DNA from: Escherichia coli
Lineage (GTDB): Bacteria; Pseudomonadota; Gammaproteobacteria; Enterobacterales; Enterobacteriaceae
Direction: 5' to 3' (one strand)
Length of the DNA stretch: 64,000 bases
NCBI RefSeq assembly: GCF_051903065.1
Contig: NZ_CP178438.1
Shown: piece by piece, positions 18,833 through 25,895 of the stretch
How the letters are laid out: every line of letters starts with the position of its first letter
Position numbering within the stretch: the stretch's first letter is position 1
Notes under the pieces: generated by a model
What the model was told of the DNA's origin: nothing
Databases searched by the model: none
The model's input: only the letters and a program-made list of their open reading frames with translations
Made by a program: the position numbers and the translations under genes

Positions 18833-21800
18833 ATGAGCGGAAAACCGGCGGCGCGTCAGGGCGACATGACGCAGTATGGCGGTAGCATTGTCCAGGGTTC
18901 AGCCGGGGTGCGCATCGGTGCCCCCACCGGCGTGGCCTGTTCGGTGTGCCCCGGCGGGGTGACGTCCGGCCATCCGGTCAATCCGCTGCTGGGTGCAAAG
19001 GTCCTTCCCGCTGAAACCGACATCGCCCTGCCCGCCCCGCTGCCGTTCATTCTCTCCCGCACCTACAGCAGTTACCGGACAAAAACGCCCGCGCCGGTGG
19101 GGAGCCTCGGCCCCGGCTGGAAAATGCCTGCGGATATCCGCTTACAGCTGCGCGATAACACACTGATACTCAGTGATAACGGCGGCAGAAGCCTGTATTT
19201 TGAGCACCTGTTTCCCGGTGAGGACGGTTACAGCCGCAGCGAGTCACTGTGGCTGGTGCGCGGCGGCGTGGCGAAACTGGATGAAGGTCACCGGCTGGCC
19301 GCACTCTGGCAGGCGCTGCCGGAAGAGCTTCGCCTGAGTCCGCATCGTTATCTGGCGACAAACAGTCCGCAGGGGCCGTGGTGGCTGCTCGGCTGGTGTG
19401 AGCGGGTGCCGGAAGCGGATGAGTTGCTGCCTGCGCCGCTGCCGCCGTACCGGGTACTGACCGGGCTGGTGGACCGCTTCGGGCGCACACAGACGTTCCA
19501 CCGCGAAGCCGCCGGTGAATTCAGCGGCGAAATCACCGGCGTGACGGATGGTGCCGGGCGTCACTTCCGGCTGGTACTGACCACGCAGGCGCAGCGGGCA
19601 GAAGAAGCCCGGCAGCAGGCCTCTTCCGGCGGGACGGAACCGTCCGCTTTTCCTGATACCCTGCCGGGTTACACCGAATATGGCCGGGACAACGGCATCC
19701 GTCTGTCTGCCGTGTGGCTGACGCACGACCCGGAATACCCGGACAACCTGCCAGCCGCGCCGCTGGTGCGCTATGGCTGGACGCCACGCGGCGAACTGGC
19801 GGCAGTGTATGACCGCAGCAATACACAGGTGCGCAGCTTTACTTACGATGATAAATACCGGGGCCGGATGGTGGCGCACCGTCACACGGGCCGACCGGAA
19901 ATCCGTTACCGTTACGACAGCGACGGGCGGGTGACAGAGCAGCTTAACCCGGCGGGCTTAAGCTACACCTACTGTTATGAGCAAAACCGCATCACCATCA
20001 CCGACAGCCTGGACCGCCGTGAAGTGCTGCACACGCAGGGCGAAGGCGGGCTGAAGCGGGTGGTGAAAAAGGAACACGCGGACGGCAGCGTCACGCAGAG
20101 TCAGTTTGATGCGGTGGGCAGGCTTAAGGCACAGACGGATGCCGCAGGCCGGACAACAGAATACAGCCCGGATGTGGTGACGGGACTCATCACGCGCATC
20201 ACCACACCGGATGGCAGGGCATCGGCATTTTACTATAACCACCACAGCCAGTTAACGTCAGCCACCGGGCCTGACGGGCTGGAATTGCGCCGGGAATATG
20301 ATGAATCCGGCCGTCTGATTCAGGAAACCGCCCCTGACGGCGATATCACCCGCTACCGTTATGATAATCCACACAGTGACTTACCCTGCGCAACGGACGA
20401 TGCCACCGGCAGCCGGAAAACCATGACGTGGAGCCGTTACGGCCAGTTGCTGAGCTTCACCGACTGTTCCGGTTATGTAACCCGTTATGACCATGACCGT
20501 TTCGGGCAGATGACGGCGGTGCACCGCGAGGAAGGGCTGAGTCAGTACCGCGCATACGACAGCCGTGGACAGTTAATTGCGGTGAAAGACATGCAGGGCC
20601 ATGAAATGCGGTATGAATACAACGCCGCCGGTGACCTGACCGCCGTCATTGCTCCGGACGGCAGCAGAAACGGGACACAGTACGATGCGTGGGGAAAGGC
20701 CATCCGTACCACGCAGGGCGGGCTGACGCGCAGTATGGAATACGATGCTGCCGGACGGGTCATCCGCCTGACCAGTGAAAACGGCAGCCATACCACCTTC
20801 CGTTACGATGTACTCGACCGGCTGATACAGGAAACCGGCTTTGACGGCCGCACACAGCGTTATCACCACGACCTGACCGGCAAACTTATCCGCAGCGAGG
20901 ATGAGGGGCTGGTCACCCACTGGCACTATGACGAAGCAGACCGCCTCACGCACCGCACCGTGAATGGCGAAACCGCAGAGCGGTGGCAGTATGACGAACG
21001 CGGCTGGCTGACAGACATCAGCCATATCAGCGAAGGGCACCGGGTGACGGTGCATTACGGGTATGATGAGAAAGGCCGGCTGACCGGTGAGCGTCAGACG
21101 GTGCATCACCCGCAGACGGAAGCACTGCTCTGGCAGCATGAGACCAGACACGCTTACAACGCGCAGGGACTGGCGAACCGCTGTATACCGGACAGCCTGC
21201 CCGCCGTGGAATGGCTGACCTACGGCAGCGGCTGGCTGTCAGGCATGAAGCTCGGCGACACACCGCTGGTGGATTTCACCCGCGACCGCCTGCACCGGGA
21301 AACGCTGCGCAGCTTCGGCCATTATGAACTCACCACCGCTTATACCCCTGCCGGGCAGTTACAGAGCCAGCACCTGAACAGCCTGCAGTATGACCGCGAT
21401 TACACCTGGAACGACAACGGCGAACTCATCCGCATCAGCAGCCCGCGCCATACCCGGAGTTACAGCTACAGCAACTCCGGCAGGCTGACCGGCGTTCACA
21501 CCACCACCTCAACTCTGGATATCCGCATCCCGTATGCCACGGACCCGGCAGGTAACCGCCTGCCCGACCCGGAGCTGCACCCGGACAGCACCCTCAGCAT
21601 GTGGCCGGATAACCGTATCGCCCGTGACGCGCACTATCTTTACCGGTATGACCGTCACGGCAGACTGACAGAGAAAACCGACCTCATCCCGGAAGGGGTT
21701 ATCCGCACGGATGATGAGCGCACCCACCGGTACCATTACGACAGTCAGCACCGGCTGGTGCACTACACGCGGACACAATATGCAGAGCCGCTGGTCGAAA

Positions 21801-23032
21801 GCCGCTATCTTTACGACCCGCTGGGCCGCAGGGTGGCAAAACGGGTATGGCGACGTGAACGGGACCTGACGGGCTGGATGTCGCTGTCACGGAAACCGCA
21901 AGTGACCTGGTACGGCTGGGATGGCGACCGCCTGACCACGATACAGAACGACAGAACCCGCATCCAGACGATTTATCAGCCGGGGAGCTTCACACCACTC
22001 ATCAGAGTTGAAACTGCCACCGGTGAACTGGCCAGAACGCAGCGCCGCAGCCTGGCGGATGCCCTTCAGCAGTCCGGCGGTGAAGACGGTGGCAGTGTGG
22101 TGTTCCCGCCGGTGCTGGTGCAGATGCTCGACCGGCTGGAAAGTGAAATCCTGGCTGACCGGGTGAGTGAGGAAAGTCGCCGCTGGCTGGCATCGTGCGG
22201 CCTGACGGTGGAGCAGATGCAAAACCAGATGGACCCGGTGTACACGCCGGCGCGAAAAATCCACCTGTACCACTGCGACCATCGCGGCCTGCCGCTGGCG
22301 CTTATCAGTGCGGAAGGGGCTACAGAATGGTGCGCAGAATACGATGAATGGGGCAACCTGCTGAATGAAGAGAACCCGCAACAGCTGCAGCAGCTCATCC
22401 GCCTGCCGGGTCAGCAGTATGATGAGGAGTCCGGCCTGTATTACAATCGCCACCGCTATTATGACCCGCTGCAGGGGAGGTATATCACTCAGGATCCGAT
22501 TGGGCTGAAGGGGGGATGGAATTTTTATCAGTATCCGTTGAATCCGGTTCAGTATATAGATTCAATGGGACTGGCATCAAAATATGGACACTTAAATAAT
22601 GGCGGATATGGAGCGAGACCCAACAAACCGCCTACGCCCGATCCAAGTAAATTGCCAGACATAGCGAAACAATTAAGACTGCCATATCCTATTGACCAGG
22701 CCAGTAGTGCGCCTAATGTTTTCAAAACATTCTTCAGAGCATTAAGCCCTTACGACTACACACTGTATTGCAGGAAGTGGGTAAAACCAAATCTGACTTG
22801 TACGCCACAGGATGATCCCCAGTATCCAGGGATGGATACAAAGACAGCAAGTGATTACCTGCCACAGACAAATTGGCCAACAACTCAATTACCACCAGGA
22901 TATACTTGTGCAGAACCCTATTTATTCCCAGACATTAATAAACCCGATGGGCCAGCAACAGCAGGGATAGATGATTTGGGTGAAATTTTAGCTAAAATGA
23001 AACAGAGAACATCGAGAGGAATAAGAAAATGA
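18833..23032 (+). CDS. rhsC: Rhs-family polymorphic toxin (rhsC-type): GC-rich YD-repeat core plus AT-rich variable C-terminal toxin domain
   Basis: 1399-aa ORF with many YD/RHS repeats (…YRYD…GR…), a core-end motif …[39 protein letters not shown], and a compositionally distinct tail; sits between ybfA and ybgA. Confidence 0.9.
22576..23032 (+). other. variable C-terminal toxin domain of the Rhs protein (about 150 aa, no recognisable catalytic motif)
   Basis: Begins just after the DPIGL…DSMGL core boundary; codon usage switches abruptly from GC-rich to AT-rich; Pro/Cys-containing sequence with no HNH/nuclease/deaminase motif that I can recognise. Confidence 0.6.
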
Positions 23033-23598
23033 AAAGAGTTTTGTTCTTTTTGCTGATGATATTTGTTAGTTTTGGTGTTATAGCTGATTGCGAAATACAA
23101 GCTAAAGATCATGATTGTTTTACTATTTTCGCTAAGGGTACTATTTTTTCCGCGTTTCCTGTCTTAAATAATAAAGCCATGTGGAAATGGTATCAGAATG
23201 AGGACATCGGTGAGTATTATTGGCAAACAGAACTGGGTACATGTAAAAATAATAAATTCACACCAAACGGGGCGAGACTCTTAATTCGCGTCGGGTCACT
23301 ACGCCTTAATGAAAATCATGCCATCAAAGGAACGTTGCAGGAGTTGATAAATACAGCAGAAAAAACGGCGTTTCTCGGCGATCGGTTTAGAAGTTATATA
23401 AGAGCGGGTATCTATCAAAAAAAGAGCAGTGATCCAGCTCAGTTGTTGGCAGTCCTTGATAATTCAATCATGGTTAAATATTTTAAAGATGAGAAGCCAA
23501 CTTATGCTCGAATGACAGCACATCTCCCGAACAAAGATGAGTCTTACGAATGTTTAACAAAAATACAGCATGAACTGCTTCGTAGTGAAGAAAAATAA
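23029..23598 (+). CDS. putative cognate Rhs immunity protein with N-terminal signal-peptide-like segment
   Basis: 189-aa AT-rich ORF whose ATG overlaps the rhs stop (ATGA at 23029-23032); N-terminus [19 protein letters not shown] looks like a Sec signal peptide; same size as K-12 ybfC as I recall it, but identity not verified. Confidence 0.6.
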
Positions 23599-23619
23599 AA
23601 CATCTTCCTGAGAGAATAA

Positions 23620-23757
23620 ATTAACCATTCGGGAAAACATGTTCTTAATGGATATCCAGGTACACCAGAAGGTCGATTTGGAAAAATGGATTCCGATGGT
23701 AAGAATATCATATATTCTGAATGTAATGTTTTACCCACAACTTTTGAGATTCGATAG
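23620..23757 (+). pseudogene. orphan toxin C-terminal remnant (no start codon)
   Basis: Open frame without an initiator encoding …NHSGKHVLNGYPGTPEGRFGKMDSDGKNIIYSECNVLPTTFEIR, ending 9 nt before the next small ORF; this arrangement is typical of orphan toxin-tip/immunity cassettes downstream of rhs genes. Confidence 0.4.
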
Positions 23758-23766
23758 GTGTAGAAC

Positions 23767-24069
23767 ATGAGAAACTCACTAATATTACTTATTATGATAT
23801 TGTTTACAATATCACACTCAGTATTTGGAAAAGAAAATCCAGTGGAAATTTTAGTAAATAGTTGTGAAATGGCTTTGGAATTATCATATGTTTACATTAA
23901 ATATGTATACGGGAAAGAAAAAGCAGAATTTCAGAAACCATATAGTATTACAGATGACAATAATTGTTGGAAAATCGAGGGAAAACAACCGAAGACTTTA
24001 GGAGGAAATTTTACAATACTAATAGCGAAAAAAGATGGGCAAGTGTTGAATGTAATACACACGAAATAA
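23767..24069 (+). CDS. putative orphan immunity protein (small, signal-peptide-bearing)
   Basis: 100-aa AT-rich ORF, N-terminus MRNSLILLIMILFTISHSVFG is signal-peptide-like; directly follows the toxin remnant. Confidence 0.45.
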   Translation: MRNSLILLIMILFTISHSVFGKENPVEILVNSCEMALELSYVYIKYVYGKEKAEFQKPYSITDDNNCWKIEGKQPKTLGGNFTILIAKKDGQVLNVIHTK

Positions 24070-24489
24070 TCCACTGTACAGTCGATTCAAATATTTTACC
24101 AAGGTGTGTTTCGTAACAATTTTGTGTACAATATGACTCTACATATCGACGAAAAAACCACTTGATTTGACAGGAACACATTCAAAAAAATTTCTTTTTT
24201 TCATTTCAGGAGCGATTTTCATCTGTTACTTGAAGTATCTGTGAGATTAAGTGACTCCCCCTAACGTCGTACTAAATAGTAATTACTGGCCATACCGGGA
24301 GCAGTATTCGGCGCTCCCCACATGCAGCAGAATAACCGCATCAGCCAGGGAAAGATCATCAAAAGTTCACTTTTTGCACTAAATAATTCGCATTTTATGT
24401 TTAAAAATTGAGATATTCCTTATTACCTAAAGCTGTTTTTTATTGCTTATACATGATCAAATACTCCTTACATAATTAAGGAGAACAAA

Positions 24490-25625
24490 ATGGAACTTAA
24501 AAAATTGATGGAACATATTTCTATTATCCCTGATTACAGACAAGCCTGGAAAGTGGAGCATAAATTATCGGATATTCTACTGTTGACTATTTGTGCCGTT
24601 ATTTCTGGTGCAGAAGGCTGGGAAGATATAGAGGATTTTGGGGGAACACATCTCGATTTTTTGAAGCAATATGGTGATTTTGAAAATGGTATTCCTGTCC
24701 ACGATACCATTGCCAGAGTTGTATCCTGTATCAGTCCTGCAAAATTTCACGAGTGCTTTATTAACTGGATGCGTGACTGCCATTCTTCAAATGATAAAGA
24801 CGTCATTGCAATTGATGGAAAAACACTCCGGCATTCTTATGACAAGAGTCGCCGCAGGGGAGCGATTCATGTCATTAGTGCGTTCTCAACAATGCACAGT
24901 CTGGTCATCGGACAGATCAAGACAGATGAGAAATCTAATGAGATCACAGCTATCCCTGAACTTCTTAACATGCTGGATATTAAAGGAAAAATTATCACAA
25001 CTGATGCGATTGGTTGCCAGAAAGATATCGCAGAGAAGATACAAAAACAGGGCGGTGATTATTTATTCGCTGTAAAAGGAAATCAGGGGCGGCTTAATAA
25101 AGCCTTTGAGGAAAAATTTCCACTGAAAGAATTAAATAATCCAGAGCATGACAGTTACGCAATGAGTGAAAGAGTCACGGCAGAGAAGAGATCCGTCTTC
25201 ATAATGTTTGCGATGTCCCTGATGAACTTATTGATTTCACGTTTGAATGGAAAGGGCTGAAGAAATTATGCGTGGCAGTCTCCTTTCGGTCCATAATAGC
25301 AGAACAAAAGAAAGAGCCAGAAATGACGGTCAGATATTATATCAGTTCTGCTGATTTAACCGCAGAGAAGTTCGCCACAGCAATCCGAAACCACTGGCAC
25401 GTGGAGAATAAGCTGCACTGGCGTCTGGACGTGGTAATGAATGAAGACGACTGCAAAATAAGAAGAGGAAATGCAGCAGAATTATTTTCAGGGATACGGC
25501 ACATTGCTATTAATATTTTGACGAATGATAAGGTATTCAAGGCAGGGTTAAGACGTAAGATGCGAAAAGCAGCCATGGACAGAAACTATCTGGCGTCAGT
25601 CCTTGCGGGGAGCGGGCTTTCGTAA
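24490..25625 (+). pseudogene. ISAs1-family (H-repeat-associated) transposase, disrupted by a frameshift between 25260 and 25272
   Basis: Two adjacent ORFs (24490-25260, 256 aa, frame 1; 25272-25625, 117 aa, frame 3) that together total about 378 aa, the size of an H-repeat/ISAs1 transposase (N-terminus [51 protein letters not shown]); similar to K-12 ybfD/ybfL as I recall them. Confidence 0.75.
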
Positions 25626-25637
25626 TCTTGCCCTGGA

Positions 25638-25895
25638 ATGCTGACAGATAAGAATGATTGTGCCAGAATTGAAGCTATAAGCGGACTGGCAGAAAGAAAA
25701 GATAATCGTGTTATAACTGCTATAATTTATGAACTGCAAAAAAACATAATTTTTGATGAAGTTATTATTTTGGCAGGTATTTTAGGTGATATTAAACTAC
25801 ATCCTATTCAAAAAAATATATTAAATGAATTTAATGATGAGGATGTCATTGGCAATATAAAGTCAGCAATACAACAAATTATAAAATATAATTGA
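25638..25895 (+). CDS. hypothetical protein fragment with HEAT/PBS-lyase-like repeat pattern
   Basis: 85-aa AT-rich ORF immediately after the H-repeat element; repeat-like …ARIEAISGLAERKDNRVITAIIYEL… pattern; likely a remnant. Confidence 0.3.
   Translation: MLTDKNDCARIEAISGLAERKDNRVITAIIYELQKNIIFDEVIILAGILGDIKLHPIQKNILNEFNDEDVIGNIKSAIQQIIKYN

Follow-up and report, generated by a model that had tools for sequence, protein, structure and literature searches.

Behind the main rhs gene of an Escherichia coli genome lie two short open frames, one without a start codon and the other seemingly complete, and the question they raise is what they once were, how they came to lie there and whether either still has a function. 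We addressed this in a 64,000-nucleotide stretch of DNA (the window), in which the two frames occupy positions 23620-24069. An initial annotation, made from the sequence alone, had described them as a decayed orphan toxin tip with its immunity gene, and this description was borne out: full-length toxin relatives of the first frame exist, and the second frame belongs to the Imm-NTF2-2 family.

Layout of the rhsC locus

Gene order identified the window as the E. coli rhsC locus, which comprises the following features:

5' of the rhs gene: kdpA-kdpF-ybfA
18833-23032, + strand: main rhs gene, 1399 aa (ORF list; 'RHS element core protein' according to PGAP in an identical strain)
23029-23598, + strand: ybfC, 189 aa, presumed immunity gene of the attached tip (ORF list, PGAP)
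23599-23619, + strand: junction of 21 nt from the ybfC stop to the stub, ending in a second in-frame TAA (23617-23619)
23620-23757, + strand: stub, the last 45 codons and stop of a displaced Tox-JAB-2/DUF4329 Rhs toxin tip (tblastn, DNA homology)
23756-23760, + strand: AGGTG, a putative Shine-Dalgarno-like site 6 nt 5' of the ATG, overlapping the stub's TAG (read from the sequence)
23767-24069, + strand: orphan immunity gene of the Imm-NTF2-2 family, 100 aa, intact (Pfam PF15631, PGAP)
24070-24345, + strand: non-coding tail of the old cassette
24346-25625, + strand: ISEc1 / H-repeat (ISAs1-family) element, the array boundary, whose left end at 24346 abuts the old cassette
3' side of the locus: ybgA, phr, dtpD

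The main rhs gene consists of a K-12 rhsC-type core (to ~22570) followed by a YbfO-type tip (~22571-23032), the currently attached toxin. The core (18833-22570) was 96% identical to K-12 rhsC, and positions 21527-23637 were 97.9% identical to K-12 ybfO plus ybfC; the tip of the K-12 'pseudogene' ybfO is thus attached to rhs here and is therefore a working tip in this strain. Neither the attached tip (159 aa tested) nor YbfC matched any Pfam model, and NCBIfam contained no matching model for these two, the 100-aa ORF, the stub or the parent tip. The N-terminus of YbfC is signal-like, as is that of the 100-aa ORF. We also observed that ybfC and the stub share a reading frame, separated only by the TAA codons at 23596-23598 and 23617-23619, which is probably coincidental, given odds of one in three. 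Homology to the parent toxin within the 21 nt before 23620 was considered and rejected, with ungapped identity at the level of chance and only a gapped 'TCCTG' match.

On the downstream side, homology to the locus of the full-length toxin persists through the first part of the tail (24070-24204), while the second part (24205-24345) is common to orphan arrays of other strains, where a DUF6258 gene comes next; this gene is absent here. Between the immunity gene and the element, ETEC6335 has an additional 220 bases, and BL21 and O157:H7 have the DUF6258 gene plus an RHS fragment, from which it follows that part of the array was lost in the window strain. The ISEc1 transposase is frameshifted and split into two ORFs (24490-25260 and 25272-25625). 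Directly 3' of ISEc1 lies an 85-aa ORF (25638-25895, + strand) sharing 46% identity (E = 3e-20) with residues 200-273 of YibA, a HEAT-repeat protein of rhs arrays; it has no Pfam match and the RefSeq name 'hypothetical protein', and it resembles the C-terminal end of a further Rhs-associated gene, severed by the insertion element. Two complete genomes, 23CRST027 (NZ_AP045789.1) and 23CRST031, were 100% identical to the window across 23599-24480.

The toxin stub and its immunity gene

The upstream frame, INHSGKHVLNGYPGTPEGRFGKMDSDGKNIIYSECNVLPTTFEIR, is open and has no start codon, as initially described, but comprises 45 codons plus TAG rather than the 46 aa first assigned to it. It opens right behind the TAA at 23617-23619, with 21 nt separating it from the ybfC stop, and between its TAG (23755-23757) and the ATG of the 100-aa ORF at 23767 there are 9 nt, a spacing that the initial annotation had given correctly. 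The stub is the only element of the module without an annotation. With the stub alone, Pfam returned DUF4329 as the sole match, and a weak one (E = 0.21, model positions 87-111 of 116), and a word-index protein search with the 45-aa stub yielded nothing beyond two very short ORFs called in that same region.

The parent toxin was reached via the neighbors of immunity-gene homologues. Three E. coli drafts (L006, GCA_021758325.1; L007; and L009) encode a full-length Rhs toxin ending in AYHTHGAYNRHYENEEFSPADINYSKKHVLNGYLGTPEGRFGKMDFDGKNIIYSECNVLPTTFEIR, which stops 9 nt before the ATG of an immunity gene, just as the stub does; this immunity gene (P0007) is 84% identical to the window ORF. By tblastn, 41 of the 45 stub residues were identical to the C-terminus of the L006 toxin (E = 4e-23), and DNA homology between window 23620-24204 and L006 2134-2719 (89.4%) sets in exactly at 23620. 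The C-terminal domain of the parent matches PF14220 (DUF4329; E = 5.3e-33) and carries the motifs E (EYAG), HTH and SPAD. An Rhs tip from Rahnella (L014), 72% identical, ends in YLGTPEGRFGKMNSKGKDISYSEINTLPTVYEIR and is likewise followed by an Imm-NTF2-2 gene, so that full-length relatives, which the initial annotation had proposed to seek by tblastn, were recovered from both E. coli and Rahnella. The immunity gene lies directly 3' of a DUF4329 toxin in all four of these loci and in K-12 rhsB-yhhH.

An alignment of the parent, the Rahnella tip, another E. coli tip and the K-12 RhsB C-terminus places the start of the stub immediately 3' of SPAD, and the catalytic E, HTH and SxxD motifs are all missing from it in the motif alignment. 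The stub keeps the last 45 of ~145 toxin-domain residues, with ~100 gone, and retains the YxGTPxGxF...GK motif of the DUF4329 family; the assignment to Tox-JAB-2/DUF4329 also agrees with the JAB/MPN fold. No rhs-core homology was found 5' of 23620, and parent homology begins ~118 codons past the DPLGL motif. Judged by its sequence, the stub is the remnant of a Tox-JAB-2 member, without a working toxin domain. Because it has no start codon, catalytic residues or core homology, it is inert and cannot rejoin a core.

The full-length subtype was found only in a few E. coli drafts and in Rahnella. The part of the parent toxin that is missing from the stub was present in none of 5,426 complete E. 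coli genomes (>80% nucleotide identity), while the RhsB-type tip, ~65% identical to the stub's subtype at the DNA level, was present in 2,603 of them (about 48%). A word-index search with the parent toxin domain gave two matches only. Sequence profiles compared against the PDB revealed no solved relative of the toxin or the immunity protein, with matches to the toxin profile confined to the end of the Rhs core.

The downstream ORF matches Pfam PF15631 (E = 2.7e-20, residues 35-100 on model positions 1-68 of 68) and is named 'NTF2 fold immunity protein' by RefSeq/PGAP. K-12 YhhH, a PF15631 protein encoded directly after rhsB, is a paralogue with 42% identity. An exhaustive search of 1.84 billion representative proteins identified 272 Imm-NTF2-2 relatives at E <= 0.001, and in an alignment of 56 sequences the window ORF keeps the invariant G72 together with the nearly invariant A36, Y48, G49, P58, W68, G79, G80, G91 and H98; Y and W were named as conserved residues of the family by Zhang 2012 (PMC3482391). 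At the sequence level, membership in Imm-NTF2-2 is firm. The AlphaFold2 model (pLDDT 88.9) has an N-terminal hydrophobic helix, a linker and two helices on a four-stranded sheet, an architecture that only loosely confirms the 'NTF2 fold' label, and a Foldseek search of the PDB with this model returned nothing significant.

A scan of the + strand revealed no terminator-like site separating rhs from the ORF. Promoter-like sites did not exceed their frequency in shuffled sequence, and the stub contained none. An internal promoter for the immunity gene is thus unsupported, and any expression would presumably occur by read-through. The window copy also carries a lineage-specific R33C substitution: codon 33 has T at 23863, whereas all other loci compared, among them the one with the full-length toxin, have C. 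This position is K in YhhH and unconserved across the wider family, and the variant was found on 25 contigs versus 283 for the R33 form.

The initial annotation had noted a signal-peptide-like N-terminus, and a simple hydropathy heuristic agreed. The sequence MRNSLILLIMILFTISHSVFG, followed by KE, contains one basic residue, a hydrophobic stretch and a cleavage-like site of small residues; residues 1-21 are signal-like, with MRN, a 13-residue hydrophobic run and SVFG/KE, and the best 10-residue Kyte-Doolittle mean is 3.34. By the same kind of heuristic, 91 of 110 diverse Imm-NTF2-2 representatives (family P0030-P0171) have a signal-like or lipoprotein-like N-terminus, 20 of these 91 with a lipobox-like motif, and the N-terminus of K-12 YhhH (L013:4900-5283) is signal-like too.

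An exported immunity family is an odd partner for a toxin domain labelled RNase. Several genome-survey papers call DUF4329 an RNase solely by citing Ma et al. 2017, and one survey that uses the label states that activity and substrate are unknown. The apparently exported family, a predicted immunity fold closest to cystatin/PepSY protease-inhibitor-type domains and the JAMM-like fold of the parent toxin, with its E...HTH...SxxD motif, together suggest a periplasmic metallopeptidase. That Tox-JAB-2/DUF4329 Rhs tips are periplasm-acting metallopeptidases and not 'RNases', and that the intact window gene is a still-protective periplasmic protease inhibitor, is a tentative reading that we regard as doubtful. 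A literature search found no functional paper on RhsB/YhhH. Speculative as the argument is, the apparently exported immunity family calls into question the 'RNase' label of a toxin domain found in about half of complete E. coli genomes.

Probable displacement, spread and decay

The stub and the immunity gene are very probably a relic of rhs tip displacement. An ancestral rhs gene would have carried a Tox-JAB-2 (DUF4329; JAB/JAMM-fold) tip with an Imm-NTF2-2 gene 9 nt later, onto whose conserved core a newer cassette, a YbfO-type tip with ybfC, recombined. An illegitimate join would have placed the downstream end of this cassette within the old toxin, 135 nt short of the old toxin's stop codon, leaving behind a 45-codon stub and the entire old immunity gene. 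If read through from rhs-ybfC, the immunity gene would give a product exported via its signal-like N-terminus, which could bind rare parental-type Tox-JAB-2 toxins coming in from other strains. A C-terminal displacement model of rhs tips was put forward by Jackson 2009 (PMC2935791), and the retention of a 3' effector end with its immunity gene has been ascribed to homology-facilitated illegitimate recombination by Kirchberger 2017 (PMC5361080).

K-12 has a further tip, RhsC-CT with ybfB, ahead of ybfO-ybfC. Of the stub, it retains just the first 18 nt (to 23637), between ybfC and an H-repeat. This extra layer puts the tips in the order Tox-JAB-2, YbfO and K-12 RhsC, oldest first, an order of displacement events that is read from present-day arrangements. 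The pre-displacement state at the rhsC locus was seen in no genome of the collections.

The block of ybfC, stub and immunity gene was present in 848 of the 5,426 complete E. coli genomes (~16%), at three loci: rhsC, rhsA (yibF...yibA) and rhsB (nikR...yhhJ). The junction at 23620 was identical in all sampled copies among the 848 genomes, which points to one founding event, after which the whole block moved with the active tip. The immunity gene itself varies among carriers:

Intact, 100 aa: window, L001 and L002; about 320 contigs
ATG to ACG, 75-aa call: BL21 (L003) and L016; at least 1,000 contigs
TTA to TAA at codon 29 (L29*), 66-aa call: O157:H7 SS52 (L015); at least 1,000 contigs
2-bp deletion near the 3' end, 115-aa form: rhsA/rhsB-locus copies L004 and L005; 839 contigs
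Module deleted: K-12

Damaged forms were found on at least 2,839 contigs of the protein collection versus about 320 for the intact 100-aa form, counts that are skewed by the heavily sequenced O157:H7 and B lineages. The immunity ORF, initially described as intact, is so in the window strain, but it is damaged or deleted in most other carriers; with a lost start, a nonsense codon, a 2-bp deletion or outright deletion in other lineages, the gene is mostly decaying. Comparison of the window copy with the copy beside the full-length toxin gave a dN/dS of 0.32, which mixes paired and orphan history, and comparisons between orphan copies involve only 5-8 substitutions, too few to inform. A homologue with 55% identity (L010) was considered as an independent lineage and rejected, as it is a frameshifted, decayed copy of the ybfC-stub-immunity block. 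In L003 (BL21(RP), NZ_CP084683.1), the ybfC-stub-immunity array is flanked by phoE-proBA and ybgA-phr, with no more than an RHS fragment (90 bp) and a 'hypothetical' tip remnant (155 aa) on its 5' side; a large rearrangement or deletion apparently accounts for the missing rhs core.

What do these patterns imply for the function of the module today? That both features are chance open frames could be entertained for an AT-rich region (GC 0.35 in the stub and 0.29 in the ORF at 23767-24069) in which numerous short ORFs overlap, but the Pfam match of the ORF and the tblastn match of the stub, the 272 family representatives among 1.84 billion proteins and the AlphaFold2 confidence reduce it to a negligible prospect. 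Conservation, whose absence would have spoken against the initial annotation, is evident for the 100-aa ORF, a member of a known immunity family. Hardly more credible is the proposal in the initial annotation that the module is a silent reserve which recombination onto an rhs core could bring back into use. The module does sit in an rhs orphan array 3' of the main rhs gene, other strains have orphan tips with core fragments nearby (for example, K-12 ybfO), and re-activation of orphan rhs tips by recombination onto a core was reportedly observed in Salmonella by Koskiniemi et al. in 2014. However, homology to the parent starts past SPAD, and the E, HTH and SxxD motifs, ~100 domain residues and all of the core are gone; a stub without toxin domain or core homology leaves nothing to re-activate and nothing to recombine with.

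A more serious contender is that the immunity gene is an actively maintained orphan defense against the Tox-JAB-2 toxins of neighbors, with the stub kept only for its translation signals. The ORF is intact, with the length of the cognate copy, a putative Shine-Dalgarno-like site and all conserved residues, its dN/dS against that copy is 0.32, and the block occupies three rhs loci and 16% of complete genomes; protection by orphan immunity genes is, moreover, known in other systems (PMC10539506). Set against this are at least four independent lesions in other lineages, with damaged forms outnumbering intact ones several-fold, and the rarity of the threat, none of the 5,426 complete E. coli genomes having the parental toxin at >80% nucleotide identity. 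The block always moves with ybfC and its tip, and its spread is therefore explained by hitch-hiking. We consider maintained defense possible but unlikely. On the population data, selection on the immunity gene is weak or absent across most of the species, and an unbroken leftover is more likely than a maintained defense. The gene may still protect the window strain, an outcome to which we give somewhat less than an even chance.

Comparison with known systems

The family pair, the orphan arrays and the displacement mechanism are all already known from publications, and the ORF is annotated in RefSeq. The locus is a textbook-style case of how rhs loci gather leftovers when tips swap, and it matters little in itself. 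Its value lies in a clean, dated series of tip layers, from Tox-JAB-2 through YbfO to K-12 RhsC, and in a natural allelic series (intact, start-loss, nonsense, frameshift and deleted) that could be used to test whether selection keeps orphan immunity.

Zhang 2012 (PMC3482391) paired Tox-JAB-2 ('DUF4329 in Pfam'; E, H[ST]H, S, D) with 'Imm-NTF2 family 2', a pair represented in K-12 by the RhsB C-terminus and YhhH, and the window has the same order of toxin end and immunity gene. Unlike the K-12 pair, the window retains just 45 toxin codons, and these belong to a subtype ~65% identical (DNA) to the RhsB tip. Orphan rhs tips (Jackson 2009, PMC2935791; Poole 2011, PMC3150448) likewise lie 3' of the main rhs gene with their own immunity gene next, in arrays that, as here, are bounded by H-repeat/ISEc1, and K-12 shows one additional displacement layer. 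Classical orphan tips retain a core fragment with PxxxxDPxGL along with a complete toxin domain, both of which are missing from the window stub. A likeness in proposed mechanism, homology-facilitated illegitimate recombination, exists with the orphan immunity arrays that effector replacement has left in type VI secretion system (T6SS) clusters of Vibrio cholerae (Kirchberger 2017, PMC5361080); in contrast to the auxiliary-cluster effectors of V. cholerae, the E. coli case involves an Rhs scaffold in another organism, and most of the retained immunity alleles are damaged.
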